Below, one piece after another: positions 11,153 through 48,615 of a stretch of DNA of 64,000 nt. Both the position numbers and the translations under genes were made by a program. Below the pieces are notes generated by a model. The model ran no database searches and was not told where the DNA came from. It saw only the letters and a list, made by a program, of their open reading frames with translations. Source of the DNA: Candidatus Binatia bacterium. Lineage in GTDB: Bacteria > Desulfobacterota > Binatia > Bin18. Location of the stretch: positions 2,826,105-2,890,104 of the forward strand of contig OY729511.1 in the NCBI GenBank assembly GCA_963422435.1. Direction: 5' to 3'. Numbering within the stretch: the stretch's first letter is position 1; every line of letters begins with the position of its first letter.

Positions 11153-11740
11153 ATGATTGCGCGCCTCCACGGAGTGCTCCACGAAAAGACCCCTGAGCAG
11201 CTCATTGTCGACGTTGGCGGAGTCGGCTATCAGGTGTTGGTGTCGTTACAAACCTTCTATCATCTGCCAGGGGTAGGGGAACGGGTCAGCTTGCTCATCC
11301 ACACGCATGCGCGAGAAGATGCCCTCCAACTGTTCGGTTTTCTGGAAGAAAAGGAAAAGTCCTATTTTCTGCTGCTTCGCAGCGTGAGTGGTATCGGCCC
11401 CCGCTTGGCCCTAAATATTCTGTCGGGCATTCCGGTTGATGAGTTGGAGAACGCGCTGCATACGCGCGATGTGACTCGCCTGGTTGCGACGCCGGGCGTT
11501 GGAAAGAAGACGGCTGAACGTTTGGTTGTCGAACTCCAGGAGAAAGTCGGCGTGAGTGAACAGGAGAATGGGATTCCTGCGGTAACCCCCAGTCCCCTCT
11601 CGACCGAAGCGACCTCTGCTCTGGTGAATCTGGGCTATCGGCAGGCGCAGGCCGAGAAGACGGTGCGCGCGGTTGTCCGCGATGGACACTCGCCCATTGC
11701 CGATGTGATCCGAGAATCGTTACGGAGGCTCAGCACATGA
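11153..11740 (+). CDS. ruvA: Holliday junction DNA helicase RuvA
   Basis: [29 protein letters not shown]-terminus, HhH domain, and C-terminal domain III. Confidence 0.9.
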
Positions 11741-12855
11741 GCCGCACCGAGAAAGACGTGCGAAAAGAGACGAACGACAATGCGGATAGCCCGGGGCACG
11801 GCCTGCTGAACCTCCATCCGTCGCCGGCTGACGGGGAGACTGCCTGGCCTGACGAGCCACATGTCGAGGGCTCGCTCCGCCCGCGCAGTCTTGAAGAATA
11901 CATCGGACAAGAGGGAACGAAACAGAATCTGGCGATAGCCATTGAGGCGGCCAAGCAGCGGGATGACGTTCTTGACCACCTGCTCTTCTGTGGTCCGCCC
12001 GGGTTAGGAAAAACGTCCCTGGCGCATATTATTGCGCGTGAAATGGATGGAACGATTCGGGCCACCACCGGCCCGGTGATTGAACGGCCCGGCGATCTGG
12101 CCGCTATTCTGACCAACCTGGAAGAAGGCGATGTACTCTTCATCGACGAGATACATCGACTCAATCACGTGGTTGAGGAATTTCTGTATCCGGCAATGGA
12201 AGATTTTGAACTTGACCTCGTCGTCGGCCAGGGCCCATCGGCGCGAACGGTCAAGCTGCCCCTGAAGCACTTCACCTTAATCGGCGCCACCACCCGCGCC
12301 GGGCTGTTGACCTCGCCGCTCCGCGATCGTTTTGGGTCAACGTTCCGATTGGATTTTTACCAGGTGTCCGAATTGGAACAGATCATTTGTCGGTCGGCCT
12401 CAATTCTTGCGGTTGAGACCGACGCGGGCGGAACCGCGGAAATTGCGCGCCGCGCACGGGGAACCCCCCGGATTGCCAATCGCTTACTCCGACGAGTGCG
12501 TGACTATGCCCAAGTAAAGAAGGAGCCGGTTGTCACGCAAGCAGTCGCCCATGCCGCCCTGACGCTGGTTGAAGTAGATGAGGCTGGATTTGACAAAATG
12601 GACCTGGCGATTCTGCGGACGATTATCGAGAAATTTGACGGAGGACCGGTCGGTGTCGAGACCATCGCCGCGGCTATTGGCGAAGAGAAGAGCACCATTG
12701 AAGACGTATACGAGCCGTACCTCTTGCAGGAGGGGTTTTTGCAGCGCACCCCGCGGGGACGTGTGGCCCCCCTCAAGGCCTATCGGCATCTGCATATTGA
12801 CCAACCTGGCAAAAAAGAGCAGGACGATTTGTTCTCACGAAAGCGACCAAAATAG
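11737..12855 (+). CDS. ruvB: Holliday junction DNA helicase RuvB
   Basis: AAA+ Walker [31 protein letters not shown], and a winged-helix C-terminus. ATGA overlap with ruvA. Confidence 0.9.
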
Positions 12856-12928: not shown

Positions 12929-15208
12929 ATGGAAGCCCCAGTCCACGAAAATCGCTTGGAGGAGCACAAACGGCGCCAGTTCTGGGAGGTCGTTGTCATC
13001 TTCGCGGCAGCGCTAGGCGTCTTTTTATTTGCCTTTCTCCAGAGTCGCTCGCCACAACTCAGCGACGGCGAGAGTCTCATCAGCAACATTATTTTTATTC
13101 TGCTGATCAATCTCAATATCATTCTGCTCGTTTTGCTCGTTTTCCTTGTTGGCCGGAACCTGCTGAAGCTGCTTTACGAGCGCCGTCGCAAGCTGCTCGG
13201 TGCACACCTCCGCTCTCGACTCGTCCTCGCTTTTTTGGGCATTTCTCTTTTCCCGGCAGTCCTCCTGTTCTTTATCGGGGTCGGCTTTCTGACGAAGTCA
13301 ATCGAGAATTGGTTCGCCTTACGTGTTGAGGGCTCGTTAAGCAGCTCGCTTGAGGTGGTTGACAGCGTCTATGCACGGCTTGCTGATGAGACCCTCACCC
13401 ACGCGCGGGCAATTGCCCGGACGATTATCTCCCAAGAACTCCTTGAGCCGCCGCACTTCGAGCGGTTGCAATCTCGCATGAACAGCGAGCAGTACGAACG
13501 GGACCTGGCCCAGCTCGTCGTGTACTCTGCGGCGCTCACCCTTGTGGCTCACGCGCCGGAGACGAGTGGGACGTTGACAGCTCCCCAACTCGGCGAGGCC
13601 CTCTTGGAGCGGGTCCGGTCTGAGGTCGAAGAGGTCCAGCAAATCGTGCCGCTGGAGCAGGCCGAGTTGGTGTACGGCGGTGTTCCCGTCATCAGTGGCG
13701 GACACCTTGCCGGTGTTGTTGTGGCCAGCACCCAGGTTCCTGCGGACGTCGTCAGACAAGGGGCGCAGGTGGTCGAGGCGTTAGATGAATATCGCCAGCT
13801 CAGGATCCTGAAGCAGCCAATCAAAAATAATTATGTGATTACGATGTTCCTGGTCACCTTAGTCGTCATCTTCTCGGCGATCTGGGTGGGTCTCTATCTG
13901 GCGAAAAAAATTGCTGTTCCCCTCCAACAGTTATCGGCCGCGACACGGGAGGTGGCTCAGGGTCACTGGGCGCACCGGATCGAGGGGGAAGGGGAGGATG
14001 AGATCGGAACCCTCGTTTCCGCTTTCAATCGGATGACTGTCGACCTCCAGCAGAGTCACCAGGAACTTGAGGCCCGGCGTCGCTATATGGAGATCTTACT
14101 CGGGAATATCAACGCTGGTGTGGTCTCGTTTGATCGCGATGGTCGGCTCTCTACCCTGAACCGGGCGGCGGAGCAGTTGCTGCGTTTGCAGGCCGATAGC
14201 GTGATTGGGCAGGATTATCGTGATGTTTTCTCCGCCAGCGAGTTCCAAGAAGTGCAGCGTATCGTTCAGGAACTCCTTCTGGTGCAACACGGTAACGGGA
14301 ACGCTGTCAGTCAAGAACAGCGGGGCCAACTCCGTTTAGATCGCGACGGACACGTCTATTCCCTCCTGATAACAGGGACCCCTCTGCCTGACGACCGTGA
14401 GCATGCGCTCGGGGTGTTATGCTTTTTTGAGGATGTGACGCAGATCGTCCAGGTCGAACGGATGGAAGCCTGGCGCGAGGTCGCCCGTCGTATTGCGCAT
14501 GAAATTAAAAATCCGCTGACACCGATTCAGCTTGCGGCCCAGCGTCTCCAGCGCCGTTTTGGTCCCCAGATTGCGGACGGGAGCGAGGTGTTTGACGAGT
14601 GTGTGCAGAGCATCGCGCATGAAGTCGACGCGATTAAAAAACTCGTCAACGAATTTTCCACATTTGCTCGTCTGCCGGCCGGAAAGCAGAGTCTGCATGA
14701 CCTGAATGCGTTGGCACAGGAGACAATTGTGCTGATCGCTGAAGCCTACCGTGACCTGGATGTCGCCTTTGTGCCGGATCGTTCACTGCCGTTGTTCGAG
14801 CTTGATCGCGAGGGGATGCGACGTGTCCTGCGCAATCTGTTGGACAATGCGGTTGTCGCGTGTCGAGAAGGGACGGATGGGATGCAGGGACATATCGAAG
14901 TCGCGACTCGATATTTGCGTCCGCTTGGCATTGCCCGTATCGAAATCGCTGATAATGGCTGTGGGATCCCGCCAGATGTCAAGCAGCGACTGTTCGAGCC
15001 GTATTTTTCAACCAAAAAGGACGGGACCGGACTCGGTCTGGCCATTGTTGCAACCGTGGTGGCGGATCACCAGGCATTTATCCGAGTACGAGACAACACG
15101 CCACGAGGCAGCCGGTTCATTATTGAGATGCCTGTGCGCAGCAGTCCTCGTCAGACTGGTATGCTGGGTGAGAAGCCCTCGTCACCGTCTATTGAAAACG
15201 CAGCCTGA
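12929..15208 (+). CDS. ntrY: NtrY-like sensor histidine kinase (multi-TM, periplasmic domain, HAMP, PAS, HisKA, HATPase_c)
   Basis: Three N-terminal TM helices, about 180 aa extracytoplasmic segment, a fourth TM, HAMP, PAS, H-box IAHEIKNPLTPIQ, and N/G boxes (DNGCGIP, GTGLGLAIV). Confidence 0.8.
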   Translation: MEAPVHENRLEEHKRRQFWEVVVIFAAALGVFLFAFLQSRSPQLSDGESLISNIIFILLINLNIILLVLLVFLVGRNLLKLLYERRRKLLGAHLRSRLVLAFLGISLFPAVLLFFIGVGFLTKSIENWFALRVEGSLSSSLEVVDSVYARLADETLTHARAIARTIISQELLEPPHFERLQSRMNSEQYERDLAQLVVYSAALTLVAHAPETSGTLTAPQLGEALLERVRSEVEEVQQIVPLEQAELVYGGVPVISGGHLAGVVVASTQVPADVVRQGAQVVEALDEYRQLRILKQPIKNNYVITMFLVTLVVIFSAIWVGLYLAKKIAVPLQQLSAATREVAQGHWAHRIEGEGEDEIGTLVSAFNRMTVDLQQSHQELEARRRYMEILLGNINAGVVSFDRDGRLSTLNRAAEQLLRLQADSVIGQDYRDVFSASEFQEVQRIVQELLLVQHGNGNAVSQEQRGQLRLDRDGHVYSLLITGTPLPDDREHALGVLCFFEDVTQIVQVERMEAWREVARRIAHEIKNPLTPIQLAAQRLQRRFGPQIADGSEVFDECVQSIAHEVDAIKKLVNEFSTFARLPAGKQSLHDLNALAQETIVLIAEAYRDLDVAFVPDRSLPLFELDREGMRRVLRNLLDNAVVACREGTDGMQGHIEVATRYLRPLGIARIEIADNGCGIPPDVKQRLFEPYFSTKKDGTGLGLAIVATVVADHQAFIRVRDNTPRGSRFIIEMPVRSSPRQTGMLGEKPSSPSIENAA

Positions 15209-15226
15209 GGCCGGGGAGGGACGCCA

Positions 15227-16537
15227 ATGGAAGAGCCGCTCTTAATCGTGGATGACGAAGAAAAAATCCGGACGATGTTGCGTGGCGTTTTGCAAGATGA
15301 AGGGTTCCGTACGCTTGAGACGGACTCAGGTGACAGCGTTCTTGACTTAGTCGCCAAGTGGCATCCGCGTCTGGTCCTCCTCGATATCTGGATGCCGCAC
15401 ATTGATGGGATCGCTCTGCTCGAACAGCTCCAGGCTCGAGACCCTGAACTGCCGATTATTGTGATCTCCGGTCATGGGACGATCGAAACAGCCGTCCGTG
15501 CCACCAAACTGGGAGCCGCGGATTTCCTCGAAAAGCCTTTCTCGCTGTATACCCTACTCCGTTCGGTCCACCGGGCCCTGGGAACAGAGCCGAGCCATTC
15601 CACCGCTATGCAGATAGACACAGCCGCGGCTGATACAGACTCTCCAGCCGTACACACGACGCGAAAAATCCCGGCCCGGACCATTCGTCACAGTGTGGTT
15701 GTACACGGTCGGGGGCTCCACTCGGGGGTGCGCACGGGGATTATTTTACATCCCTTATCGCCGGGGAGCGGCATTGTGTTCGGTCCCTTGTCCTCGGACA
15801 TCATGATTCCGGCAACCGTCAAGTATGTCCAATCGACCGGCTACGCAACCAGCCTGTATCGGGAGGGGACGGGGGTAAAAACGGTTGAACACCTGCTCTC
15901 GGCGCTGCACGGGTATGGCATTACCAATCTGCTCATTAAAATGCAGGGGGAGGTCCCTATTCTCGATGGGTCGGCGCTGGAATTTTGTCAGTTGCTCGAC
16001 AGCGCCGGTATTGTTGAACAAGACGAAGAGGTAGAGGCAGTGAGCGTAGACCGGGCCTATCAGGTCGGCGACCATAATGCAGGAAAGTTCCTCCGCATCG
16101 AGCCCTCAGAGCAGCTTGAGATCGACTACTGCCTGGAATATCCAGAGCCAGTCGGGAGACAGGAGTTCTACTACGTCCAGCGTGATGCAGACAGCTATCG
16201 TGAGACGATCGCGCCGGCGCGGACTTTCGGCTTTCTCAAGGAGATTGAAGCGCTCGAAGAGATGGGTCTCGCCAATGGCGGCCGGCTGAATAACTGCCTC
16301 GTGATTGGCGAGCAAGGGATCATCAATCCGCCGCTCCGCTTTGAGAATGAGCTGGTCCGCCACAAGATTCTTGATCTGCTCGGCGATCTCTACCTCTTAG
16401 GCCAGCCCATCCGTGGCAAAGTGACGGCCTACCGGACAGGACATGGCGACAATATCGCTCTGCTGCGGGCCATCCGAGAAGAGCAGGCTCCGCGCGTGCC
16501 AGAGCCGGCGTCAAAGACAGCCCCGGCTCTCCAGTGA
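15227..16537 (+). CDS. lpxC: Fusion protein: NtrX/NtrC-type receiver (REC) domain fused to UDP-3-O-acyl-N-acetylglucosamine deacetylase LpxC
   Basis: Residues 1-120 are a CheY-like receiver (DDEE acidic pocket, phospho-acceptor Asp in LVLLDIWMPHIDG, ISGHG, FLEKPF). After about 35 aa of linker, a complete LpxC: TVEHLLSALHG (catalytic Glu/His pair), ARTFGFLKEIE, RFENELVRHKILDLLGDL, YRTGHGDN. It lies 18 nt downstream of the kinase. Confidence 0.8.
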   Translation: MEEPLLIVDDEEKIRTMLRGVLQDEGFRTLETDSGDSVLDLVAKWHPRLVLLDIWMPHIDGIALLEQLQARDPELPIIVISGHGTIETAVRATKLGAADFLEKPFSLYTLLRSVHRALGTEPSHSTAMQIDTAAADTDSPAVHTTRKIPARTIRHSVVVHGRGLHSGVRTGIILHPLSPGSGIVFGPLSSDIMIPATVKYVQSTGYATSLYREGTGVKTVEHLLSALHGYGITNLLIKMQGEVPILDGSALEFCQLLDSAGIVEQDEEVEAVSVDRAYQVGDHNAGKFLRIEPSEQLEIDYCLEYPEPVGRQEFYYVQRDADSYRETIAPARTFGFLKEIEALEEMGLANGGRLNNCLVIGEQGIINPPLRFENELVRHKILDLLGDLYLLGQPIRGKVTAYRTGHGDNIALLRAIREEQAPRVPEPASKTAPALQ

Positions 16538-17905: not shown

Positions 17906-18904
17906 ATGAGGCCGAGTCGGAAAGTCGTCAGTTCCTCCCTGGTGCTCTTACTGTTCACGACAGGTGGAGCACCGATACGCGCGCGGGCGGCGGAGTGTGC
18001 CTCTTCGCAGGACTATCGCCGCTGTCAGTTGCATATTGTTCAAATAGATCGGGTTGCACGGCGTCTGCTTGAAGCTGTTCCTCGGCCGTATCCTGTCCAG
18101 TTTATACTGGCCGTCGGCGAGCCGACGATTAACGCTGGAGCAACCTTTGGTAAGGTCATACTCTCCTCTGGCATGATGGACTTCCTCCGCTCGGACGATG
18201 AACTGGCGATAATTCTAGGACACGAACTGGCGCATATTACCCGGGGACACGTTGCCCGAGGAGCGACGAACAAGGTCCTGTTGGATATCGGAAATGCCTT
18301 AGCCAGTGCTGTTTTTCCTGGTGCGGGCACGGCAACTAATGTGGTTGGCCGGCTTTTTCTGAATCATTTTAATCAAGAGCAGGAGTTGGAGGCCGATCGG
18401 GTGGGGCTCCAGTACGCGACTGATGCTGGCTATGATCCACGGGCGGGTGAGGCGGTGATGCGCCGCTTGGCCGAAGAGGTTCCCCAGAGTGCGACCGCGG
18501 GGTTTTTCTCTTCCCATCCGTCTTCCGGAGAACGGGCGAGCGCGCTGAAGAAGAGGGCGGATCAAATCACCCTCCGGTCGGACAGGGCGCGGCAGGAGGG
18601 GGGTGCGCCCCGATTCGGTCGGGATGAAGTGGCGTGTCGTCGGGCAAGGCCACACTTTTACCGCGCCCGGGCGCGTCCGAACTTAACCGAGAAAGCCGCG
18701 CTCTATCGGCGAGGCCTGCGCCAGTGCCCTGAGAGTCCGCGCGCACTTTTTGAGTTGGCCGAGACCTATATCCAGATGGGCCAGGACCAACGTGCTGCCG
18801 TAGAACTGCGTGCGGTGCTGCGCTATGACTCTGGATATCCACGCGCGCAACGTCGCCTGCGTGAAGTTGCGCGCCGTCTCTCGTCGGGGAAAAATAAAAA
18901 ATAA
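17906..18904 (+). CDS. M48 family zinc metallopeptidase with C-terminal TPR repeats (BepA/YcaL-like)
   Basis: Signal peptide, HEXXH ([13 protein letters not shown]), and a TPR-like C-terminus. Confidence 0.75.
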
Positions 18905-20195: not shown

Positions 20196-21284
20196 GTGGG
20201 CGAACAAAACACTCCTGACATCCACACTCGTATCACTGAACGACTCAGGCAAATTCAATATCCAGGCTCACAGCGGGATATTGTGAGCTTAGGACTCGTT
20301 GGTAAGGTTCAAGTGCAGGCAGATAGTGTGGTGGTGCATATTCGGGCAAGCAGTATCAAAGAAGATGTGCTTCGACACTTGCGTGGACGCATAACGCAAG
20401 AATTGACGACCTTCCCTGAGATTGCGCACGTCCATATCCACGCGTTCCCCGCTCAAGCCGGGCAACCAAACCAGGCTGGCACGGCGGGCAATCAAGCCGT
20501 GCGAGAGCGAGCGGATATTCCTGGTGTTCGGCGTATTCTGGCAGTGGCCAGTGGCAAAGGCGGAGTCGGAAAATCTACGGTTGCGGTCAACCTCGCCCTG
20601 GCCCTGGCGTCGTTAGGACATAAGGTTGGGCTGCTTGATGCCGATATTTATGGGCCCAGCGTGCCGCTGATGATGGGGACTGAGGCCACGCCGCAGGCCG
20701 GACAGGACAAAAAGATCTATCCGGTTGAAAAGTATGGGATCAGCCTCATCTCAATGGGCTTTTTTCTGGATGACCAGTCGCCAGTGATCTGGCGGGGCCC
20801 CATTGTGATGAGCATTATCCGCCAATTCCTGCGGGACGTGCTCTGGAGTGAATTGGATTACTTAGTTGTGGACCTGCCACCCGGCACCGGCGATATCGCT
20901 CTCACCTTGGCGCAGGAAGTGCCCTTGCACGGGGGCGTTGTGGTGACGACGCCGCAAGATGTCGCCCTGCTTGACGTCCAGCGCGGGATCAGTATGTTCA
21001 AACAGGTCAACGTGCCGCTTCTCGGGATCATCGAAAATATGAGTTTCTACGAATGCCCGGTCTGCCACGAAAAAGAAGAAGTCTTCGGCCATGGTGGCGC
21101 ACAGAAAACAGGATTGAAAGTGCTGGGGGAGGTCCCCCTGGTTGAAGAAGTCCGAGCGGGTGCCGACGCCGGCAAGCCGGTGGTTGTCTCGGCTCCTGAC
21201 CATCCGGTTGCCCAGGAGTTTTTCGGGATCGCCCGACAGGTCGTCGCAACAGAGGAAATGCAGTTACCCCAGTCGATCCACTAA
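20196..21284 (+). CDS. apbC: Mrp/ApbC/NBP35(Ind1-like) Fe-S cluster carrier ATPase with N-terminal DUF59/MIP18 domain
   Basis: GTG start with a GAGGAGGAG Shine-Dalgarno sequence. DUF59 segment (IQYPGSQRDIVSLGLV), deviant Walker A AVASGKGGVGKSTVAVNLALALA, and a CxxC region (CPVCHEKE). Confidence 0.85.
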   Translation: MGEQNTPDIHTRITERLRQIQYPGSQRDIVSLGLVGKVQVQADSVVVHIRASSIKEDVLRHLRGRITQELTTFPEIAHVHIHAFPAQAGQPNQAGTAGNQAVRERADIPGVRRILAVASGKGGVGKSTVAVNLALALASLGHKVGLLDADIYGPSVPLMMGTEATPQAGQDKKIYPVEKYGISLISMGFFLDDQSPVIWRGPIVMSIIRQFLRDVLWSELDYLVVDLPPGTGDIALTLAQEVPLHGGVVVTTPQDVALLDVQRGISMFKQVNVPLLGIIENMSFYECPVCHEKEEVFGHGGAQKTGLKVLGEVPLVEEVRAGADAGKPVVVSAPDHPVAQEFFGIARQVVATEEMQLPQSIH

Positions 21285-21635: not shown

Positions 21636-22703
21636 ATGTCAACACCACCAACACCCCAGGAATTATTAGAAGCGCTCAAACAAGTCAAATATCCTGGCTT
21701 TAGCCGAGATATTGTTGCCTTCGGCGTGGTCAAGGACATTGCAGTCGGCGGTGCCGCGGTGACGGTCGAACTCGCCCCTTCAACTGGCAATGCGGAGGTC
21801 ATCGCAAACATTCGACAGAGTGTGATTGAAACGCTGAGCCCGCTCGTCCAACTGCCCGTAGAGATTTCCATCCAGCAGCCGGCTACCCCAAAACCGCCGT
21901 CCAAGTCCAAGCCTGAGATTCCAGGGGTACGGCATGTGATCGCGGTGGCCAGTGGCAAGGGCGGAGTTGGAAAATCAACGGTTTCGGTGAACCTGGCAAG
22001 TGCGCTGGCTCGAACAGGCCAGCGGGTTGGGGTGATGGATGCCGATATCTACGGACCGAGTATCCCCCTCATGCTGGGCATTACCGAGAAGCCCAAGAGT
22101 ACGGAAGATAAGCGGCTGATCCCAGTTGCCAAATACGACATGCAGATCATGTCCATGGGCTTTCTGATCCCGGATGGCCATGCTGTCATTTGGCGTGGGC
22201 CGATGATTGATAAGCTGCTGACCGAGTTTATTACCAAGGTCGAGTGGGGGAAATTGGATGTGCTCGTTGTTGACCTGCCGCCCGGCACCGGTGATGCCCA
22301 GCTGACCTTGGTGCAAAAGGTCCCGCTCTCCGGCGGGGTCATCGTGACGACGCCCCAAGATGTGGCGCTACTCGATGCGCGGCGCGGCATCAAGATGTTT
22401 GAGGAAGTCGACGTTCCGGTCTTAGGCGTTATCGAGAATATGAGCTACCTGATCTGCCGTTCCTGTGGACATGAGGCGTATATTTTTTCTCATGGTAACG
22501 GGGTGAAAATGGCCGAGCAGTTTCATCTGCCGTTCCTCGGTCAGCTGCCCCTCGTCCACGAGATTGTCGCTGGAGGGGATGCGGGAATCCCGCTTGTGAT
22601 CGCCCAGCCTGACCACCCGCAGAGTCAGACCTTTCTTGAGATTGCCCAGCAAGTCCTGAGGCAAGTCGACACACCGTCCGTCCGCCCCGGGACTCTCCAA
22701 TAG
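21636..22703 (+). CDS. Second Mrp/ApbC/NBP35(Ind1-like) Fe-S cluster carrier ATPase with DUF59 domain
   Basis: VKYPGFSRDIVAFGVV, AVASGKGGVGKSTVSVNLASALA, and CRSCGHEA. Paralogous to the gene at 20196. Confidence 0.85.
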   Translation: MSTPPTPQELLEALKQVKYPGFSRDIVAFGVVKDIAVGGAAVTVELAPSTGNAEVIANIRQSVIETLSPLVQLPVEISIQQPATPKPPSKSKPEIPGVRHVIAVASGKGGVGKSTVSVNLASALARTGQRVGVMDADIYGPSIPLMLGITEKPKSTEDKRLIPVAKYDMQIMSMGFLIPDGHAVIWRGPMIDKLLTEFITKVEWGKLDVLVVDLPPGTGDAQLTLVQKVPLSGGVIVTTPQDVALLDARRGIKMFEEVDVPVLGVIENMSYLICRSCGHEAYIFSHGNGVKMAEQFHLPFLGQLPLVHEIVAGGDAGIPLVIAQPDHPQSQTFLEIAQQVLRQVDTPSVRPGTLQ

Positions 22704-27149: not shown

Positions 27150-28304
27150 ATGAGCTTGGCAGGGTATGAGTTTGAAGTCCAACGTGACGATGGTCTCGCA
27201 ACCGAAGAGATGACCCTGAATATGGGCCCCCAGCATCCGAGTACGCACGGGGTGTTGCGTTTTGTGGTCAAGGCCGACGGTGAAATCATGCGGACGGCCC
27301 TTCCTGACATTGGGTATCTACATCGCTCCATAGAGAAGATATCCGAGAAGGTCGGTTATCATGGCTTCATGCCCTATACGGACCGCGTCGATTATGTATC
27401 GGCCATGCAGTGTAACCAGGGCTGGGCCATGGTCTGCGAGCGCGCGGCCGGGATTGAGGTGCCTCGGCGGGGAGAGTTTTGTCGGGTCATTGCTTGCGAA
27501 TTGGGTCGAATCGCCAGTCACCTGCTCTCGGTTGGGACCATGGTCATGGATATTGGTGGGATGACACCGTTTACGCACGCGATTCGGGAGCGGGAAAAGG
27601 TGAATAACCTGCTTGAAGATCTGTGCGGTGCACGGCTGACCTTTAATTATATGCGTATTGGCGGCGTAGCCTGGGATTTACCGCCGGGGTATGCAGAACA
27701 AGTGACGGCCTTCCTGGATCAATTTGGACCCCTCATTGCCGAATACAACGACCTGATTTCCTATAATAAGATCTATGTCGAACGCTTAGCCAATGTTGCT
27801 GCGGTCAGCAAAGAAGAGGCGATTAACTACAACTTGGTTGGCCCCAATCTGCGCGGCTGTGGTTTTCAGTATGATGTGCGTCGGGATGAGCCTTATTCGA
27901 TTTACCCGGAATTAGACTTTGATGTCCCAGTTGGGACAGGCGAAGTCGGCACCCTGGGCGATTGCTTTGACCGCTACATAGTGCGGATTAAAGAATTAAA
28001 AGAATCGTGCAAAATCGTCCGCCAATGCCTGGATATGATCCCCGCCGGGCCGGTCCTGGCGAGAGTGGCCAAGAAGCTCAAACCGCCGGTTGGCGACGCG
28101 CATGTCCGTGTCGAAGCCTCTCGGGGGGATATGGGCTGGTATGTGGTCAGTGACGGGAGTGAGTTTCCCTATCGAACAAAAATTAGAACTGGCTCGTTTT
28201 CAGCGATGAGCATAGTGGACAAACTCAGTCGTGGGTTGATGATTGCCGACCTGATTGCGCTGATTGCCAGCCTCGATGTGGTGGCTCCTGAAGTTGACCG
28301 GTAA
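27150..28304 (+). CDS. nuoD: NADH-quinone oxidoreductase subunit D
   Basis: 49 kDa subunit motifs (MTLNMGPQHPSTHGVLR, C-terminal RGxMG). Confidence 0.9.
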   Translation: MSLAGYEFEVQRDDGLATEEMTLNMGPQHPSTHGVLRFVVKADGEIMRTALPDIGYLHRSIEKISEKVGYHGFMPYTDRVDYVSAMQCNQGWAMVCERAAGIEVPRRGEFCRVIACELGRIASHLLSVGTMVMDIGGMTPFTHAIREREKVNNLLEDLCGARLTFNYMRIGGVAWDLPPGYAEQVTAFLDQFGPLIAEYNDLISYNKIYVERLANVAAVSKEEAINYNLVGPNLRGCGFQYDVRRDEPYSIYPELDFDVPVGTGEVGTLGDCFDRYIVRIKELKESCKIVRQCLDMIPAGPVLARVAKKLKPPVGDAHVRVEASRGDMGWYVVSDGSEFPYRTKIRTGSFSAMSIVDKLSRGLMIADLIALIASLDVVAPEVDR

Positions 28305-28332
28305 AGGGAAATACGGTACGAGTGCGGCGCCT

Positions 28333-29523
28333 ATGCAGAGTTTTATTGACAGTTTAATTGCCAGCGGCATATTTGGCGGGCTCCCGGCGGAGGCAGTCTA
28401 TCCCGCCATGATGTTTCTGTTTGCCTCCCTCGTTGTCTTTGGCTTTGTTTTACCCCTGGTGACGATCACCATCTGGCTCGAGCGGCGGGTCTGGTCGCGC
28501 ATTCAGTCGAGGGTTGGGCCGAATCGGGTTGGGCCTCAAGGCGTCCTGCAAGGGTTGGCTGATGGGGTGAAAAATATTCTGAAGGAAGACGTGGTGCCTG
28601 ATGCCGCGGACCGTCCGCTGTTTGTGTTCGCACCCTATCTGTTGGTCTGGGGATTTCTGGCGACTTTTGTCGTTATCCCGTTCAGCAGTGCGCTTGTTAT
28701 TGCCGACCTCAATGTGGGGATTCTCTATATCACGGCAATCGTCGCGCTCTCCGCTGTCGGTGTCCTCATGGCGGGCTGGGCATCGAATAATAAATGGTCC
28801 CTGCTGGGCGGCATCCGATCCGCTGCTCAGGTCGTGAGTTATGAAATCCCCGCCGGACTGGCATTGCTGCCCGTCGTGCTCCTGACCGGAACCCTGAGCA
28901 CGCAAGGGATCATCCAAGCACAAGGCTGGGCACCTTGGGACTGGTTCCTTTTCCATAGCCCGTTTACGTTCATTGCCGCCTTTGCTTTCTATATTTCCGC
29001 CCTTGCGGAAACCAATCGAACGCCTTTTGACATTCCAGAAGCGGAATCGGAACTGGTGGCTGGATTTGCGACTGAGTACAGCGGGTTCCGGTTTGCGCTC
29101 TTCTTTTTGGCAGAGTGGGGCAGCTTGTACGTAACGGGTGCCATTATGGCCGTAGTATTCCTAGGGGGCTGGCAGATCCCGACCGGATGGACAAATAACA
29201 CGGTTGTGTTGAATATTGCGCAACTCGGGGTCTTTTTCCTCAAGGCGTATTTCTGGGTGTTCCTGGCCATGTGGATACGCGCCACCCTGCCTCGTATCCG
29301 GGTGGATCAGATGATGTCGCTGTGTTGGAAGTATTTGGTGCCGCTTGGATTTGTAAATTTGGTTGGGACAGCGGTCTGGATGGTGATTTGGCCTGAGGGC
29401 AATGCGTTCGTGCCGTATCTCATGGTTGTCGGTACGCTGGCTCTTACTGTCATCTTCTTCCGGCGCGTCCTATACCATTTACGTCGGGCGAAGCCTGAGC
29501 TCTATTTTAATCCGGCAATCTGA
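28333..29523 (+). CDS. nuoH: NADH-quinone oxidoreductase subunit H
   Basis: Polytopic NuoH/ND1 signature (ERRVWSRIQSRVGPNRVGP, GWASNNKWSLLGG..R). ATG 28333 is preferred over the ORF-track start 28264, which would overlap nuoD. Confidence 0.85.
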   Translation: MQSFIDSLIASGIFGGLPAEAVYPAMMFLFASLVVFGFVLPLVTITIWLERRVWSRIQSRVGPNRVGPQGVLQGLADGVKNILKEDVVPDAADRPLFVFAPYLLVWGFLATFVVIPFSSALVIADLNVGILYITAIVALSAVGVLMAGWASNNKWSLLGGIRSAAQVVSYEIPAGLALLPVVLLTGTLSTQGIIQAQGWAPWDWFLFHSPFTFIAAFAFYISALAETNRTPFDIPEAESELVAGFATEYSGFRFALFFLAEWGSLYVTGAIMAVVFLGGWQIPTGWTNNTVVLNIAQLGVFFLKAYFWVFLAMWIRATLPRIRVDQMMSLCWKYLVPLGFVNLVGTAVWMVIWPEGNAFVPYLMVVGTLALTVIFFRRVLYHLRRAKPELYFNPAI

Positions 29524-29546
29524 TGTGACGACTAGGGGAACGCTCT

Positions 29547-30128
29547 ATGGCGAGTAGTATTGGCCAATATCTGAAGCACGCGAAAGAGGCGGCGGCCACG
29601 ATTTTCGAAGGGATGAGTGTGACTATGTCTCACTTCGTCCGTAAGCCATATACTATTCAGTATCCAGACCGGACTGCGGTCCGCGTCCAAGATACGCTGC
29701 CCCTTCGTTATCGAGGCATCCTTGAAGTTGACCTGGAGATCTGCACCGGTTGTTTGGCATGTGAGCGGGCGTGTCCGATTGACTGTATTGTGATTGACGC
29801 GCCAAAGGACAAAGCGACTCGGGCGATGCTCCTGAGCCGGTTTGATATCGACATCGCCAAATGCATGTACTGTGGTCTGTGCAGCGAGGTCTGTCCCACC
29901 GGATCGATTCATCACACGACCGAATTTGAAGGGGCAGATTACTCACTGGAGAGCATGATCCGTCGTTTCGTGAAGGACCCCGTCTTGGCGTATAAGGCAA
30001 AGAAAGGGGAGGAGACTGACCCGTTGATTGCGCCGATCTTGGATCGCGGCCTGGAATTTCTTGCGGAATGGGCGGAGCCCGTTGATATGAAGAAATATAA
30101 AAAAGCGCAAGAAGAGGCCGCCTCATAA
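29547..30128 (+). CDS. nuoI: NADH-quinone oxidoreductase subunit I (2x[4Fe-4S])
   Basis: CTGCLACERACP and CMYCGLCSEVCP. Confidence 0.9.
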   Translation: MASSIGQYLKHAKEAAATIFEGMSVTMSHFVRKPYTIQYPDRTAVRVQDTLPLRYRGILEVDLEICTGCLACERACPIDCIVIDAPKDKATRAMLLSRFDIDIAKCMYCGLCSEVCPTGSIHHTTEFEGADYSLESMIRRFVKDPVLAYKAKKGEETDPLIAPILDRGLEFLAEWAEPVDMKKYKKAQEEAAS

Positions 30129-30145
30129 GTTGCGGATAAGGAGAT

Positions 30146-30667
30146 ATGGCAATGCCTTTGGAAGCGTTGGTTTTCTATCTGCTGGCCGCCTTGACCGTCG
30201 GGTCGGCGCTCATCGTCGCGCTCTCTCATAACTTGGTGTATTCGGCCTTTGCTCTGTTGGGAACGTTCATGGGGGTGGCCGGCTTGTACGCGCTGTTAGC
30301 CGCCGACTTTGTCGCAGTGATTCAGGTCATGCTCTACATTGGTGGCATCCTCGTCCTCATCCTTTTTGCGGTGATGCTCACCCATCGGATTGCTGATGTG
30401 GATGTCTCGAATCGGACGGTCGGACGTATTCCCGCTGCCTTGATTCTTGGCGTTGTCGGGACAGTCATGGGGGTCTGTATTGGGGCGGCTGAATGGGTAC
30501 AGCATGCCGAACCGGTGGTCGAGCCGACAACATTCGGTATTGGAGAGGCATTCCTTGGGCCGTATATTCTGCCATTCGAGCTCGCTTCAGTCGTGCTGCT
30601 CGTGGCGTTGATTGGGGCGGTTGTCGTGTCACGGAAGGAACTGCGTGGGCCCATGGCCGACGGATAA
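30146..30667 (+). CDS. nuoJ: NADH-quinone oxidoreductase subunit J
   Basis: Five TM helices, about 170 aa, position in the operon. Confidence 0.8.
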   Translation: MAMPLEALVFYLLAALTVGSALIVALSHNLVYSAFALLGTFMGVAGLYALLAADFVAVIQVMLYIGGILVLILFAVMLTHRIADVDVSNRTVGRIPAALILGVVGTVMGVCIGAAEWVQHAEPVVEPTTFGIGEAFLGPYILPFELASVVLLVALIGAVVVSRKELRGPMADG

Positions 30668-30762
30668 TGGTCGAGTCCAGGCTCTGCGCTCTCTCTTGAC
30701 GGCCTCCCTTGATTTTTTTCCTCCTCCCATTTAAGACGGGACAACCCTCCTCACCACTACGA

Positions 30763-31092
30763 ATGATTATGGATGGACTATTGCTCGATATAGGGCTACG
30801 GCACTTTCTGTCTGTCAGTCTGATCGTTTTTGTGCTCGGCCTCTATTGTGTTCTGACCCGGAAGAACGCCATCGGGATTCTTCTGGGCGTGGAGTTGATC
30901 CTGAACTCCGCAAACATTAACTATATTGCTTTTTCATATTTTTCTTCCGGCAATTACGATGGTCAGGTATTTGCGATTTTCGTAATTATGCTCGCTGCCG
31001 CCGAAGCGGTTATTGGGTTGGCCATCGTGCTTGGGATATACCAGAATTTTTCGTCGATCGACATTGAAGCCGTCGATAGCTTGCAAGGCTAG
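30763..31092 (+). CDS. nuoK: NADH-quinone oxidoreductase subunit K
   Basis: About 110 aa, three TM helices (GLYCVLTRKNAIGILLGVELILNSAN). Start chosen at an internal ATG. Confidence 0.75.
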   Translation: MIMDGLLLDIGLRHFLSVSLIVFVLGLYCVLTRKNAIGILLGVELILNSANINYIAFSYFSSGNYDGQVFAIFVIMLAAAEAVIGLAIVLGIYQNFSSIDIEAVDSLQG

Positions 31093-31095
31093 TCT

Positions 31096-33279
31096 ATGGA
31101 CCACCCGCTTCTCGTCTCCTCCCTGCGCTGGATCGTCCTCTTTCCCCTGCTCGGTGCCGTTATCAATGGTATTCTCGGAGCGAAGATCCAGGAGCGCTTC
31201 GGGAAGAACGGGATCAGCGTCGTTGCCTGCACGGCTGTCGGTCTGGCCTTTATCTTTGCGCTGCGGGCCTTTTTTCAGCTCACCAGTCTGGTGCCTGAAG
31301 AACGCTATTTGCTTGATACGCTCCTGCGCTGGATACATATCGGCGCTCTTCAGGTTGATATCGCGTTCGCTGTCGATCCCCTCTCCGGTCTGATGATCCT
31401 GATCGTCACCGGTATTGGCGGTCTGATTCATCTGTATTCGATCGGCTATATGCACGATGACGAAGCCTACTGGCGCTTTTTCGCCTATCTCAATCTTTTT
31501 ACCGCGGCGATGCTGACCCTGGTGCTGGCCGATAACTTGGTGTTGATGTTTGTGGGCTGGGAAGGCGTGGGCTTATGCTCCTACGGACTGATTGGATTTT
31601 GGTATAAGGAACATGCGAACACCACCGCCGGAAACAAGGCGTTTATTGTCAACCGGATTGGCGACGCCGGTTTTACGCTGGGTATTTTTATTATCTTCTG
31701 GAGTCTCTTCGAAGCGGGACACGGGACGACCGCGGTCTTTCGTGACCTGGGCCCTCTGATTCATCACCTGGAAGGGCAGATGGTCTGGGGTGTCCCGGCG
31801 GCGACGCTCGCGGCGCTATGTCTCTTTGTCGGAGCGACCGGGAAGTCCGCACAAATTCCACTCTATGTGTGGTTGCCGGATGCGATGGCCGGACCGACGC
31901 CGGTGAGTGCTTTGATCCACGCCGCGACCATGGTGACCGCCGGCGTGTACATGATGGCTCGGATGCACTTTCTCTTTTCCCTGTCGCCGGTTGCGCTCGG
32001 CGTGGTGGCGACGGTCGGTGCCCTCACTGCACTCGTTGCGGCAACCATTGGTCTCGCCCAGTTTGATATTAAGAAAGTGCTCGCGTATTCGACCGTCAGC
32101 CAGCTCGGCTATATGGTGCTGGGCGTCGGCGTGGGAGCGTATGGCGCTGCTGTTTTTCATCTGATGACGCATGCCTTCTTTAAGGCATGCCTGTTTCTTG
32201 GCTCGGGAAGCGTTATTCATGCCATGGGCGATGAGCAGGATATGCGTAAGATGGGCGGCCTCAGAGAAAAAATGCCGCTTACCTTCTGGACGTTTTTGAT
32301 CTCTACTATTGCTATTGCCGGCATTCCGCCACTGGCTGGATTTTTTTCAAAAGACGAAATTCTGTGGCTGACGTTTTCCGGTGGACATCCGCTACTGTGG
32401 TTGATCGGGTTCGCGGCTGCCGGGATGACCGCGTTCTATATGTTTCGTCAGGTCTTTATGGTTTTCTTTGGAGAGAATCGTGCCGATGAGCATACCAAAG
32501 AACATTTGCACGAATCCCCTCCAGTGATGACCTATCCCTTGATTGTTCTGGCCGTGGGGGCGGTCTTTGCCGGTTTTCTCGGGGTGCCACCTGCCCTCGG
32601 CGGGAGTAATATCCTGGAACACTGGTTGGAGCCCGTCTTTGCCGGCGGTCATGGCGGCGGCCACGCTGCACATCATCACGTTGAGGTGATCGAGTATGTC
32701 CTGATGGTGGCTTCTGTTGGCATTGCGGCTGTCGGGATATTCCTTGCGTATCTGATTTACTATCGGCAGTCCGTATCAGCCGGCACGTTTACGGCGGTCG
32801 GAGGCGGTGTCCCGTATCGAGCCGTGTTCAACAAATACTATGTTGATGAACTCTACCATGCGACCGCCGTCCGAGGGACCCTGGCTGTCAGCTGGCTCTG
32901 TTCCGTCTTTGATCGTAATGTCATCGACTTTATCGTGAATAACGTTGCCAAAGCCACCGGCGCGGTCGGCTGGGCGGTTGGTCGATTTGATCATTATATC
33001 ATTGATGGATTGGTGAACGGACTGGCCGATGTCATCTTTGGCATTGGCAATCGGTTGCGCCAAATCCAGACCGGCAACCTCAGTATTTATCTGTATGTCA
33101 TTGTTGGTGCGATTGCCGTCTCCCAATTCTTACCGCGAGTAGGGGCGGACATATTAGTCCCTGTCGTTATCGCGTTTCTCTCTCTGGTGATCGTGGTCGG
33201 AATAGCGCTGTGGCTCTCCACCAGACGAATCCAGTGGCGTCTGATGTTTACAAAAGAGGGAGTCTCGGAGCTCCGGTGA
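31096..33279 (+). CDS. nuoL: NADH-quinone oxidoreductase subunit L (antiporter-like, extended)
   Basis: 727 aa with WLPDAMAGPTPVSALIHAATMVTAG. Long C-terminal extension containing a His-rich segment GGHGGGHAAHHH. Confidence 0.85.
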   Translation: MDHPLLVSSLRWIVLFPLLGAVINGILGAKIQERFGKNGISVVACTAVGLAFIFALRAFFQLTSLVPEERYLLDTLLRWIHIGALQVDIAFAVDPLSGLMILIVTGIGGLIHLYSIGYMHDDEAYWRFFAYLNLFTAAMLTLVLADNLVLMFVGWEGVGLCSYGLIGFWYKEHANTTAGNKAFIVNRIGDAGFTLGIFIIFWSLFEAGHGTTAVFRDLGPLIHHLEGQMVWGVPAATLAALCLFVGATGKSAQIPLYVWLPDAMAGPTPVSALIHAATMVTAGVYMMARMHFLFSLSPVALGVVATVGALTALVAATIGLAQFDIKKVLAYSTVSQLGYMVLGVGVGAYGAAVFHLMTHAFFKACLFLGSGSVIHAMGDEQDMRKMGGLREKMPLTFWTFLISTIAIAGIPPLAGFFSKDEILWLTFSGGHPLLWLIGFAAAGMTAFYMFRQVFMVFFGENRADEHTKEHLHESPPVMTYPLIVLAVGAVFAGFLGVPPALGGSNILEHWLEPVFAGGHGGGHAAHHHVEVIEYVLMVASVGIAAVGIFLAYLIYYRQSVSAGTFTAVGGGVPYRAVFNKYYVDELYHATAVRGTLAVSWLCSVFDRNVIDFIVNNVAKATGAVGWAVGRFDHYIIDGLVNGLADVIFGIGNRLRQIQTGNLSIYLYVIVGAIAVSQFLPRVGADILVPVVIAFLSLVIVVGIALWLSTRRIQWRLMFTKEGVSELR

Positions 33280-33329
33280 ACCAGACCTTTTATCAAGCCC
33301 ATTGTGTGGATGTGTGGTAAGGAGCCGCT

Positions 33330-34901
33330 ATGGAGTCCTCTATTCTCACCTTAATGATTTTCTTTCCTCTGGCCGGCATGGTCACCGTCTTCTGCCTGCC
33401 GAGTCAAGCAAGAGATTTAATTCGATGGACTGCTTTTGCTTTTACCCTGCCGGCCTTCTTTTTGGGAATCTGGCTCTACCAGAACTTTGATACCACGACC
33501 ACAGCGCTTCAGTTTGTTGTGAATGTCCCGTGGATTGAATCCTTTAATATCCGCTACTTTGTTGGCGTCGATGGAGTCAGCATATCCATGATTTTGCTGA
33601 CCGCCGTTCTGTGCCCTATCTGCATTCTCGCTTCGTGGAATATTGAGCGGGCCGAGAAGGGCTATTTTGCCTTGTTCCTGCTGTTGGATACCGCCATGAC
33701 GGGCGTTTTTTGCGCCATGGACTTCTTCCTGTTTTTTATCTTCTGGGAGTTGATGCTGCTGCCGATGTATTTCCTGATTGGCATCTGGGGTGGGCCGCGG
33801 CGTGAATATGCGGCGATTAAATTCTTCCTGTATACCATGCTCGGCAGTGCGCTGATGCTGGTCTGTATGCTGGTCTTCTATTTTCAAGCCGGGGCTGTCG
33901 AAGGCGTTGGCTACACTTTTGATCTGACCCAACTCCCCGCCGTGGCGCAGCACTTTCAGACCGAGCCGCTCTTGTTTGGCTTTTCTTTGCCACAAATCAT
34001 GTGGCTCGCGCTCTTTATTAACTTTGCCGTGAAAATTCCCGCCTTTCCCTTCCACACCTGGCTGCCTGACGCCCATGTCGAAGCGCCCACCGCAATCTCC
34101 GTGATTCTGGCCGGGGTCCTGCTAAAAATGGGAACGTATGGGATTTTACGAGTCAATTATCCTCTTCTCCCGGAAGAAACCTTCCTGTTTGCACCGTACT
34201 GTCTGGCTGCCCTGGGAGCCTGGAACATCGTCTACGGGGCCTTCTGCGCCTTATCCCAGTGTTTTACCGAGCCAAAGGATCTGAAAAAACTCGTGGCCTA
34301 TTCCAGCATCAGTCACATGGGGTATGTCATGTTGGGGATGGCATCGTTTACCCCACAGGGAATCAACGGCGCGGTCTTGCAGATGTTCAATCATGGAACG
34401 ATTACCGCCATGCTCTTCCTCATTGTCGGAGTAATCTATGATCGGGCCCACCATCGACGCATCGATGGGTTTGGCGGCTTAGCCTCGGTGATGCCGGTCT
34501 ATACCGGCGTGATGGGACTCGCTTTTTTTGCCGCCATGGGGCTCCCGGGTTTGTCGGCTTTTATCTCTGAGGTCCTGTGTCTCCTCGGTGCCTGGCACAC
34601 GCATAAAATTCCGGCCTTGCTTGGCGCTCTGACCGTAATCATTACAGCGAGTTACCTGCTCTGGACGATCCAACAAATGTTTCTCGGAAAACCACGTGAG
34701 GAGTACGCAGACATGCACCTCTCAGAAATCAATACGAGAGAGCTGTGCATGTTAGCCCCGCTTGGGGTTATTGTTGTGGTCCTGGGATTTTATCCGCATG
34801 CCGTTCTGGACCTGCTCGATGTCTCGCTCCAGGGACTCAACGAAGTCGTGCTCTCTGCAAGCACAAATAGTCCTGATACCGCGGCAGTTGCGCTGCGCTA
34901 G
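33330..34901 (+). CDS. nuoM: NADH-quinone oxidoreductase subunit M
   Basis: Antiporter-like subunit, HTWLPDAHVEAPTAISVILAGVLLKMG. Confidence 0.85.
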   Translation: MESSILTLMIFFPLAGMVTVFCLPSQARDLIRWTAFAFTLPAFFLGIWLYQNFDTTTTALQFVVNVPWIESFNIRYFVGVDGVSISMILLTAVLCPICILASWNIERAEKGYFALFLLLDTAMTGVFCAMDFFLFFIFWELMLLPMYFLIGIWGGPRREYAAIKFFLYTMLGSALMLVCMLVFYFQAGAVEGVGYTFDLTQLPAVAQHFQTEPLLFGFSLPQIMWLALFINFAVKIPAFPFHTWLPDAHVEAPTAISVILAGVLLKMGTYGILRVNYPLLPEETFLFAPYCLAALGAWNIVYGAFCALSQCFTEPKDLKKLVAYSSISHMGYVMLGMASFTPQGINGAVLQMFNHGTITAMLFLIVGVIYDRAHHRRIDGFGGLASVMPVYTGVMGLAFFAAMGLPGLSAFISEVLCLLGAWHTHKIPALLGALTVIITASYLLWTIQQMFLGKPREEYADMHLSEINTRELCMLAPLGVIVVVLGFYPHAVLDLLDVSLQGLNEVVLSASTNSPDTAAVALR

Positions 34902-34928
34902 CGTATTGAACGAGATAGAAAGCATGCC

Positions 34929-36560: not shown

Positions 36561-36634
36561 CGGGGCGTAGCGCAGCCTGGTAGCGCACCTGCCTTGGGAG
36601 CAGGGGGTCGGCCGTTCAAATCGGCTCGCCCCGA
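36561..36634 (+). tRNA. tRNA-Pro (anticodon TGG)
   Basis: Cloverleaf with CGGGGCG/CGCCCCG acceptor stem and anticodon loop CTTGGGA. Confidence 0.8.
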
Positions 36635-36691
36635 TACGATGCCACTGTCAGGAGGAAAATTCCAAAGCTCCTGACCCGCGAGGCATTGAGG

Positions 36692-36765
<74 letters not shown>

Positions 36766-36768
36766 TAA

Positions 36769-36842
36769 GGTGGGTGTAGCTCAGTTGGTAGAGCACTGGG
36801 TTGTGGTCCCAGGAGTCGAGGGTTCAAGTCCCTTCACCCACC
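36769..36842 (+). tRNA. tRNA-His (anticodon GTG) with G-1
   Basis: Extra 5' G, anticodon loop TTGTGGT, GGTTCAAGTCC T-loop. Confidence 0.8.
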
Positions 36843-36934
36843 TTGTCCTCCTCACTCCAGAGCGTGATATTCTCCTGACAATCGCGGCCATGGCTCTAGT
36901 TGCCATCACTAGGAATAGTAGTTATGGTGCCCGT

Positions 36935-37007
<73 letters not shown>

Positions 37008-37028
37008 TCATTCACGGTGAGGACATAT

Positions 37029-37113
37029 GCGAGAGTGGCGAAATTGGCAGACGCGCTAGACTTAGGATCTAGTCCGCTTGAAGCGGATGGGGGTTCAAGT
37101 CCCCCCTCTCGCA
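37029..37113 (+). tRNA. tRNA-Leu (anticodon TAG), long variable arm
   Basis: GCGAGAG/CTCTCGC acceptor stem, anticodon loop CTTAGGA, extended variable arm. Confidence 0.8.
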
Positions 37114-42545: not shown

Positions 42546-42617
42546 GGGCGGTTAGCTCAGAGGAAGAGCATCGGCCTTACAAGCCGAGGGCCATCCGTTC
42601 AAATCGGATACCGCCCA
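42546..42617 (+). tRNA. tRNA-Val (anticodon TAC)
   Basis: GGGCGGT/ACCGCCC acceptor stem, anticodon loop CTTACAA. Confidence 0.75.
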
Positions 42618-42623
42618 TATGGT

Positions 42624-42701
42624 GGGGTCGTAGTTCAGCTGGTTTAGAACGCCGGCCTGTCACGCCGGAGGTCGCGAGTTCGAGTCTCGTCGGCCCCGCC
42701 A
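42624..42701 (+). tRNA. tRNA-Asp (anticodon GTC), CCA encoded
   Basis: Anticodon loop CTGTCAC, GAGTTCGAGTCTC T-arm, 3' CCA present. Confidence 0.8.
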
Positions 42702-46869: not shown

Positions 46870-46941
46870 GCTGGCGTAGCTCAACGGTAGAGCAACTGAT
46901 TTGTAATCAGTAGGTTGTAGGTTCAATTCCTATCGCCAGCC
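46870..46941 (+). tRNA. tRNA-Thr (anticodon TGT)
   Basis: GCTGGCG/CGCCAGC acceptor stem, anticodon loop TTTGTAA. Confidence 0.75.
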
Positions 46942-46967
46942 TTCTTCGATATGAAAACCGTGCACAT

Positions 46968-47406: not shown

Positions 47407-48615
<1,209 letters not shown>

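Follow-up and report, generated by a model that had tools for sequence, protein, structure and literature searches.

The subject of this study is a pair of adjacent genes on a 64,000-nucleotide (nt) stretch of assembly GCA_963422435.1, from an uncultured Candidatus Binatia bacterium (contig OY729511.1, positions 2,826,105 to 2,890,104), hereafter called the window. The first gene encodes an NtrY-type sensor histidine kinase, and the second encodes a protein in which a response regulator receiver domain (REC) is fused to LpxC. LpxC catalyzes the first committed reaction in the synthesis of lipid A, is the control point of this pathway and represents a major antibiotic target. We propose that the two genes form a two-component system in which LpxC itself serves as the response regulator, with phosphorylation modulating LpxC, and that the fusion descends from an NtrX-LpxC protein, a reading that we consider probable. 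It is carried by the architecture of the fusion, by the conservation of its residues, by the adjacency of the kinase gene and by a reduction series among its relatives.

A receiver domain fused to a complete LpxC

Both open reading frames (ORFs) and the 18-nt gap between them are exactly as described in the first-pass annotation of this DNA (ORF list). The fusion protein matched Response_reg (PF00072) over residues 6 to 114 (E value of 3.9e-30; 104.7 bits versus a Pfam cutoff of 30.2) and LpxC (PF03331) over residues 151 to 416 (E value of 1.2e-86; 291 bits). Additionally, it scored 269 bits against the NCBIfam lpxC equivalog TIGR00325, the cutoff of which is 187.25. The motifs LLDIWMPHIDG (harboring D53), ISGHG and FLEKPF are present, in good agreement with the NtrX/NtrC-type receiver proposed from the first inspection. 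The LpxC moiety, which had been described as complete and apparently intact, harbors TVEHL, VRHKILDLLGD and YRTGHGDN, and every catalytic position aligns with the closest solved enzyme, Aquifex aeolicus LpxC. Among solved structures, the receiver comes closest to Brucella NtrX (4d6x/5m7n; E value of ~1e-28), and the best response regulator model is likewise NtrX. The NtrX model NF051870 nevertheless reached only 127 bits versus a cutoff of 600, REC residues 5 to 127 alone being matched, and Pfam detected neither an AAA+ nor a helix-turn-helix (HTH) domain in the window protein, confirming that no sigma54 AAA+/HTH output is present. Judged by these matches, the window protein is a derivative of NtrX that lies outside the NtrX family proper.

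We then modeled the full-length protein with AlphaFold2 (mean predicted local distance difference test [pLDDT] score of 82; predicted template modeling [pTM] score of 0.83). In this model, REC adopts the canonical (beta-alpha)5 fold with a pLDDT of ~90, and linker residues 124 to 144 are predicted to be disordered (pLDDT of <50). The modeled LpxC domain was matched by Foldseek to A. aeolicus LpxC (1yh8/1p42) with target-normalized template modeling scores of 0.84 to 0.86 and an E value of ~1e-28. Since the pTM of the full-length model and that of an LpxC-only model (0.85) are nearly equal, the model hints at a defined arrangement of REC and LpxC. We also noted a stretch resembling Insert II at residues 335 to 363 (window 16223 to 16315; MGLANGGRLNNC...), which is nearly invariant in the fused family. 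It contains a motif in which fused proteins usually carry Arg or Lys and stand-alone LpxCs usually Ser (GG[RK]L versus GGSL).

The protein encoded upstream matched NtrY_N, HAMP, PAS, HisKA and HATPase_c, all above the Pfam cutoffs, so that the NtrY architecture assigned to it earlier holds. NtrY_N (residues 22 to 311) cleared its cutoff narrowly (27.7 versus 23.2 bits); the corresponding domains of relatives score higher. A hydropathy script identified four hydrophobic segments flanking an extracytoplasmic loop of ~170 amino acids (aa), and a motif script found the H-box His524 as well as the N, G1, F and G2 boxes. From its motifs, the kinase looks catalytically competent.

Distribution, conservation and kinase pairing

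An assembly or annotation artifact joining two genes has a negligible probability. Indeed, an identical fusion ORF is present on an independent Logan contig, and 120 of the 120 best clusters in a collection of 5.8 billion proteins are Response_reg plus LpxC proteins of 407 to 449 aa (65 to 96% identical). When one genome per species was scanned, ~30 loci with the same short architecture were recovered, the best being OZ244620.1 (88%) and OZ241351.1 (85%). The same single ORF, of similar length, thus recurs in the top clusters and in ~30 independent loci; together with the 37 sequences introduced below, this rules out the frameshift or join that the first-pass annotation had raised. Frameshifts do occur in some long-read ("MFD") metagenome-assembled genomes (MAGs), where they split the fusion, kinase or ruvB gene (L028, L029 and L055) but do not fuse it; these copies look like assembly errors more than pseudogenes.

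Hidden Markov model searches confirmed REC and LpxC in the N- and C-terminal parts, respectively, and the accompanying survey showed that the fusion is widespread across several phyla. At the 50% identity level, we found 36 distinct complete REC-LpxC cluster representatives besides the window protein, giving a set of 37 sequences that reaches down to ~34% identity; the architecture is thus represented by at least 37 clusters. The named sources are Binatia, "Deltaproteobacteria" and Thermodesulfobacteriota MAGs, Methylomirabilota, Nitrospinota and Candidatus Entotheonellia, and the fusion is also found in a complete Spirochaetota genome (AP019861.1). Where named at all, the fused proteins are labeled in databases simply as LpxC. 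Four loci (L014, L016, L030 and L037) from MAGs labeled Margulisiibacteriota, Enterobacteriaceae or Promethearchaeota archaeon display a kinase/REC-LpxC synteny of the Binatia or Thermodesulfobacteriota type, probably because the contigs were mis-binned or the taxonomic labels are wrong.

In an alignment of 78 family members, REC residues D9, D10, D53, S81, F100, K103 and P104 are invariant, as are E221, H222, T333, F334, H379, K380, D383, D387 and H406 in LpxC. In the more divergent set of 37, the LpxC catalytic residues are retained in every sequence and the REC phospho-site residues overall in 35 to 36 (D53 in 35/37, K103 in 36/37), D53 being replaced by N or S in the remaining two. The most conserved REC surfaces are the alpha1 face, which serves for kinase docking, and the alpha4-beta5-alpha5 output face. 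The linker between REC and LpxC shows zero conservation across the aligned family.

These data also bear on whether the fusion could be an accessory, conditional LpxC paralog, with a separate stand-alone LpxC ensuring the housekeeping function and the two-component system adding a boost. The window protein exceeds the lpxC equivalog cutoff, the catalytic and substrate-contact residues of the fused LpxC are all invariant, the fused clade follows whole phyla in a roughly vertical manner, and the gene lies in a core housekeeping region. The fused protein therefore looks as expected for the resident enzyme, and we regard an accessory role as distinctly unlikely. A tblastn search detected no second lpxC elsewhere in the 64-kb window, the span that was searched.

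To assess how constantly the kinase accompanies the fusion, the window proteins were compared by tblastn with all fetched loci. An orthologous NtrY-type kinase gene on the same strand, ending within ~100 nt upstream of the fusion, was found in all 30 short-form loci for which upstream sequence was available, and in ~20 of these it is preceded by ruvA-ruvB, as in the window. The same kinase type lies directly upstream in 10 loci encoding longer forms of the fusion and also in the Nitrospinota REC-HTH-LpxC loci, both of which are described below. We infer that direct phospho-control would be the most economical reading of this conserved pairing.

In Nitrospirae and Nitrospinota relatives, a DUF4390 gene is found immediately upstream of the NtrY-type kinase gene (L034:1542-2312; L083/L084:5176-5748), giving the cluster DUF4390-NtrY-[NtrX-LpxC]. 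The window lacks DUF4390, and the gene ahead of the kinase gene there is ruvB. Its product may represent a third component of the system.

Long forms, intermediates and probable descent from NtrX

The long forms are single ORFs of 665 to 735 aa with the architecture Response_reg, Sigma54_activat, AAA_lid and LpxC, and they are found in Nitrospinota, in one Nitrospirae MAG and in Thermodesulfobacteriota-type MAGs. In an alignment of the 25 long forms, Walker A is kept, the catalytic Glu of Walker B is replaced in all, and the GAFTGA loop is absent. An HTH-like segment of the Fis type is found in about half of them and deleted in the others. Intermediates of ~490 to 505 aa, consisting of REC, HTH_8 and LpxC and devoid of AAA+, are represented by P0149 (Entotheonellia, 491 aa) and P0151 (Nitrospinota, 505 aa), the gene of the latter again following those of DUF4390 and an NtrY_N kinase. 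These long and intermediate proteins share with the window protein the LpxC clade, the NtrX-type REC and often an upstream NtrY-type kinase. However, the long forms retain a degenerate sigma54-type AAA+ module, and sometimes a Fis-type HTH, at the place where the window protein harbors a 30-aa linker. In the 37-sequence set, the spacer between REC and LpxC measures 23 to 60 aa in 19 sequences (18 cluster representatives and the window protein), 69 to 114 aa in 3 clusters and 261 to 344 aa in 15 clusters. An unfused arrangement was found in a Geobacteraceae locus, where the gene after that of an NtrY-like kinase encodes a 462-aa regulator of canonical REC-AAA+-HTH build; its GAFAGA loop is intact, and its REC is 53% identical to that of the window protein.

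In neighbor-joining trees, all fused LpxC domains group in a single clade, with 69 of the 72 nearest stand-alone LpxCs left outside it (bootstrap, 129/200). Most of the sequences that seem to break this pattern are gene calls truncated at the N terminus, which start inside REC, AAA+ or HTH. When rooted on A. aeolicus LpxC, the tree united the short forms, recovered the Thermodesulfobacteriota-type long forms as their sister group and placed Nitrospinota deeper. On these sequences, the reduction series of the NtrX-LpxC fusion family ends with the window protein, its shortest and most reduced member. The most parsimonious scenario would be that a whole NtrX regulator (REC-AAA+-HTH) was fused once, end to end, to an adjacent lpxC and that its middle part then decayed and was deleted. 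This deletion would, most parsimoniously, have happened repeatedly, in Binatia and, as separate events, within Nitrospinota and Entotheonellia, and the linker of the window protein is likely the scar of the deleted AAA+/HTH module. The direction from long to short is suggested by the NtrX type of the REC, by the existence of REC-HTH_8-LpxC intermediates and by the ongoing decay of the central module. An NtrX-LpxC ancestry would also explain why an NtrX-type receiver sits on LpxC. Selection appears to have retained REC and LpxC everywhere, and usually the kinase too.

The visible decay of the rest of the NtrX module could also mean that the receiver is itself a vestigial or purely structural remnant, for example a constitutive dimerization module, with no role in signaling; the family members devoid of an adjacent kinase and the replacement of D53 by N or S in 2/37 sequences would fit this view. 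We nevertheless consider it very improbable. D9/D10, D53, S81, K103 and P104 are kept near-universally down to 34% identity, while the AAA+ catalytic residues have been lost, and kinase adjacency is kept in three architectural classes. The maintenance of the REC phospho-site next to a module that has lost its key residues is therefore the signature of selection on phosphorylation.

Several observations weigh against the two-component reading or against the descent proposed for it. The adjacent kinase is missing from many Nitrospinaceae long forms, and the Spirochaetota genome AP019861.1 (L082:7015-9284) harbors an orphan short REC-LpxC, 41% identical to the window protein, without an adjacent kinase. 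Bootstrap values within the fused clade are weak: the short forms are monophyletic in 104/200 replicates and group with the Thermodesulfobacteriota-type long forms in 83/200, and a competing topology in which all long forms are monophyletic was obtained in 75/200. Because of this, we based the evolutionary direction on the intermediates, the NtrX-type receiver and the decayed AAA+ rather than on the tree. Finally, the Insert II-like stretch has a pLDDT of 40 to 54 both with and without REC; docking of REC as the cause of this low confidence was rejected, since the value stays low in the LpxC-only model.

Genomic context

The positions of the two genes and of their domains are given in Table 1. 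The ribosome-binding site of the fusion gene sits 8 nt ahead of its ATG. A promoter/terminator scan, otherwise uninformative, detected no terminator-like site on the + strand between the kinase and fusion genes; cotranscription of the two is therefore likely. An Rfam scan of the window returned only tRNAs and no family match in the kinase/fusion locus.

Table 1. Features of the kinase/REC-LpxC locus (positions in the window)
Feature	Position (nt)	Strand	Details	Basis
NtrY-type sensor histidine kinase gene	12929..15208	+	759 aa	ORF list, Pfam
NtrY_N	12992-13861	+		Pfam
HAMP	13898-14050	+		Pfam
PAS	14096-14437	+		Pfam
HisKA	14471-14683	+	Phospho-His524 at nt 14498-14500	Pfam, motif script
HATPase_c	14804-15139	+		Pfam
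Intergenic spacer	15209..15226	+	18 nt; holds GGAGG ribosome-binding site (Shine-Dalgarno)	
REC-LpxC fusion gene	15227..16537	+	436 aa plus stop	Pfam, NCBIfam, database relatives, AlphaFold2 model
REC domain, NtrX-type	15242..15568	+		Pfam, closest solved receiver, conservation, AlphaFold2 fold
REC site residues			Acidic pocket D9/D10; phospho-acceptor D53 (nt 15383-15385); S81; F100; K103-P104	
Linker, nonconserved	15581..15673	+	aa ~119-149	pLDDT of <50 for 124-144; opposite long-form AAA+/HTH region in alignment
LpxC deacetylase domain	15677..16474	+	Begins at natural LpxC N terminus (ARTI/QRTL)	
LpxC catalytic residues			Zn ligands H222, H379, D383; general base E221; general acid H406 with Asp partner D387	
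LpxC substrate-contact residues			T333, F334, K380	
ruvA-ruvB	11153..12855	+	73-nt gap to kinase gene; context, outside the system	

The fusion gene shares the window with the core genes ruvCAB, asnS, ftsK, lolA, nuo, lptFG, rpoBC and tuf. As the first-pass annotation had pointed out, lptF/lptG, lolA and plsC are inside the window and none of them is adjacent to the pair. Just past asnS, at window positions 17906 to 18904 (+), we found a gene encoding an M48 metalloprotease with weak similarity to BepA, a protease assisting the BAM complex (83 bits, below the cutoff). Its position is maintained in the closest Binatia loci (L003 to L006), and it is therefore a second envelope-related gene syntenic with the kinase/LpxC pair.

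Further away, rpoB/rpoC are flanked by two genes for EF-Tu (tuf; window 47413 to 48615 and 61359 to 62561; both +), which have the same Pfam scores and are probably near-identical duplicates. The window also harbors a tandem pair of genes encoding ApbC/Mrp-type Fe-S cluster carrier ATPases (20196 to 21284 and 21636 to 22703; both +) and twelve tRNA genes, all on the + strand, in four clusters (36561 to 37113, 42546 to 42698, 46870 to 47327 and 48795 to 48869). The AT skew is strongly negative (to -0.28) across the nuo membrane-subunit genes (28000 to 36000), which is consistent with the T-rich codons of hydrophobic proteins and does not reflect a replication feature.

Proposed mode of control and relation to known systems

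We propose the following mechanism. The NtrY-type membrane kinase would sense an envelope or redox signal, autophosphorylate on His524 and phosphorylate the receiver in turn on Asp53, this receiver being tethered to a catalytically complete LpxC through a flexible linker of ~30 residues. Phosphorylation would alter the alpha4-beta5-alpha5 output face of the receiver, and the altered face would change LpxC function through receiver dimerization or through docking or undocking on the enzyme, in a CheB-like manner. Flux into lipid A would thereby be tuned post-translationally. The phosphotransfer and the resulting change in LpxC function are what we infer from the conserved sequences. As for the direction of the effect, we speculate that phosphorylation might inhibit LpxC, by analogy with the alphaproteobacterial NtrYX, which lowers lpxC expression.

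Receiver phosphorylation could alternatively govern the abundance or the location of LpxC and not its catalysis. REC might serve in regulated proteolysis, as a degron or adaptor site that can be switched, or LpxC might be recruited to the membrane kinase. The known control of LpxC indeed operates mainly at the level of its amount or localization, through FtsH/LapB, Lon and Ght (PMC12444477), and a long flexible linker is compatible with tethering. Furthermore, directly upstream of the Spirochaetota orphan copy lies a 265-aa LON_substr_bdg-domain gene, a possible hint of a connection with proteolysis. However, the neighborhoods of the fusion contain no conserved protease or adaptor gene, and the fused family lacks a conserved C-terminal degron. 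The 16 C-terminal residues vary among family members and are modeled as disordered, and the alignment, in which the E. coli degron itself was left unaligned, revealed no conserved tail of the enterobacterial degron type. Overall, we hold control through abundance or location to be rather unlikely.

One of the closest known systems is the NtrY/NtrX system of alpha- and betaproteobacteria. It and the window pair share the kinase architecture, a receiver that is closest to NtrX, the gene order (kinase and then regulator) and a functional link to lpxC and lipopolysaccharide (LPS), as well as, in the Nitrospirae and Nitrospinota relatives of the fusion, DUF4390 upstream of the kinase. NtrYX represses lpxC transcription in Rhodobacter sphaeroides and Caulobacter crescentus (PMC7240162, PMC12444477). 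In R. sphaeroides, deletion of ntrYX raised lpxC mRNA 8.8-fold and increased LPS, and no NtrX site was found at lpxC (PMC7240162). A 2025 review names both NtrYX and ChvGI as systems that regulate lpxC at the transcriptional level (PMC12444477). Unlike NtrX, which acts on dozens of genes and reaches lpxC only indirectly, the window regulator lacks AAA+ and HTH, which excludes it as a transcription factor, and the enzyme is its output.

A second parallel, as far as the published description goes, is the Desulfovibrio vulgaris system composed of the histidine kinase DVU2931 and the NtrC-family response regulator DVU2934, for which lpxC is the single identified target (PMC3333781). Unlike in the fusion, control is transcriptional there, with DNA binding upstream of a separate lpxC. 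Orthologs exist in Geobacter, and lpxC adjoins the orthologous operon in Syntrophobacter fumaroxidans (PMC3333781); both findings fit the gene-proximity stage of the fusion scenario. The family fits the end of a series in which lpxC would have passed from regulon member to neighbor, to fusion and then to minimal fusion. The first-pass annotation had contrasted the fusion with an LpxC that, in model organisms, is regulated by proteolysis (FtsH/LapB) and not by two-component phosphorylation. This statement has to be qualified, because both NtrYX and DVU2934 control lpxC transcription (PMC7240162, PMC12444477, PMC3333781). What sets the fusion apart is a link that is covalent and presumably post-translational.

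Response regulators with enzymatic outputs include CheB (REC and methylesterase), PleD/WspR (REC-GGDEF) and RpfG (REC-HD-GYP). In mechanistic terms, CheB-type regulators would be the nearest analog: like them, the fusion, known from its sequence, consists of an N-terminal receiver, a flexible linker and a catalytic domain, and gating by phosphorylation would be expected by analogy. Unlike in CheB, PleD/WspR and RpfG, the output is not a signaling enzyme but a Zn-dependent deacetylase of an essential biosynthetic pathway. The fusion also differs from the FtsH-LapB-YejM(PbgA) system of Enterobacteria and from the activation of LpxC by MurA in Pseudomonas aeruginosa, which rely on proteolysis or on a protein partner and not on a phospho-receiver. 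LpxC-FabZ (PRK13188) is another natural LpxC fusion. However, its C-terminal partner is metabolic, and the window protein scores 204 bits versus the PRK13188 cutoff of 465 and harbors no FabZ.

We found no description of a covalent REC-LpxC or NtrX-LpxC protein in the literature searched, which did not extend to subscription-only work such as Galperin's response regulator censuses, and the 2025 review makes no mention of a REC-LpxC fusion (PMC12444477). The fusion, including its long forms and intermediates, is thus apparently undescribed so far. According to the same review, the regulation of LpxC outside Enterobacteria and Pseudomonas is an open question (PMC12444477). A REC-LpxC paired with an NtrY-type kinase would add a post-translational regulatory logic for LPS synthesis and would extend the outputs of response regulators to a core biosynthetic enzyme. 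Its conservation also lends independent support, from genomes, to the envelope role that was recently proposed for NtrYX. Moreover, the system is minimal, since it consists of two proteins, one of which is an easily assayed enzyme, so that the hypothesis is directly testable in vitro.

More tentatively, and as a possibility to which we attach limited confidence, the kinase may monitor the status of LPS or of the outer membrane from the periplasmic side and throttle LpxC directly by phosphorylating the fused receiver, the ancestral core function of the widespread but poorly understood NtrYX system being lipid A and envelope homeostasis. If this is true, two proteins would form a feedback loop doing the job of PbgA/YejM-LapB-FtsH in E. 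coli, and the fusion would be a "Rosetta stone" for NtrYX, pointing to envelope homeostasis rather than to nitrogen or redox control.

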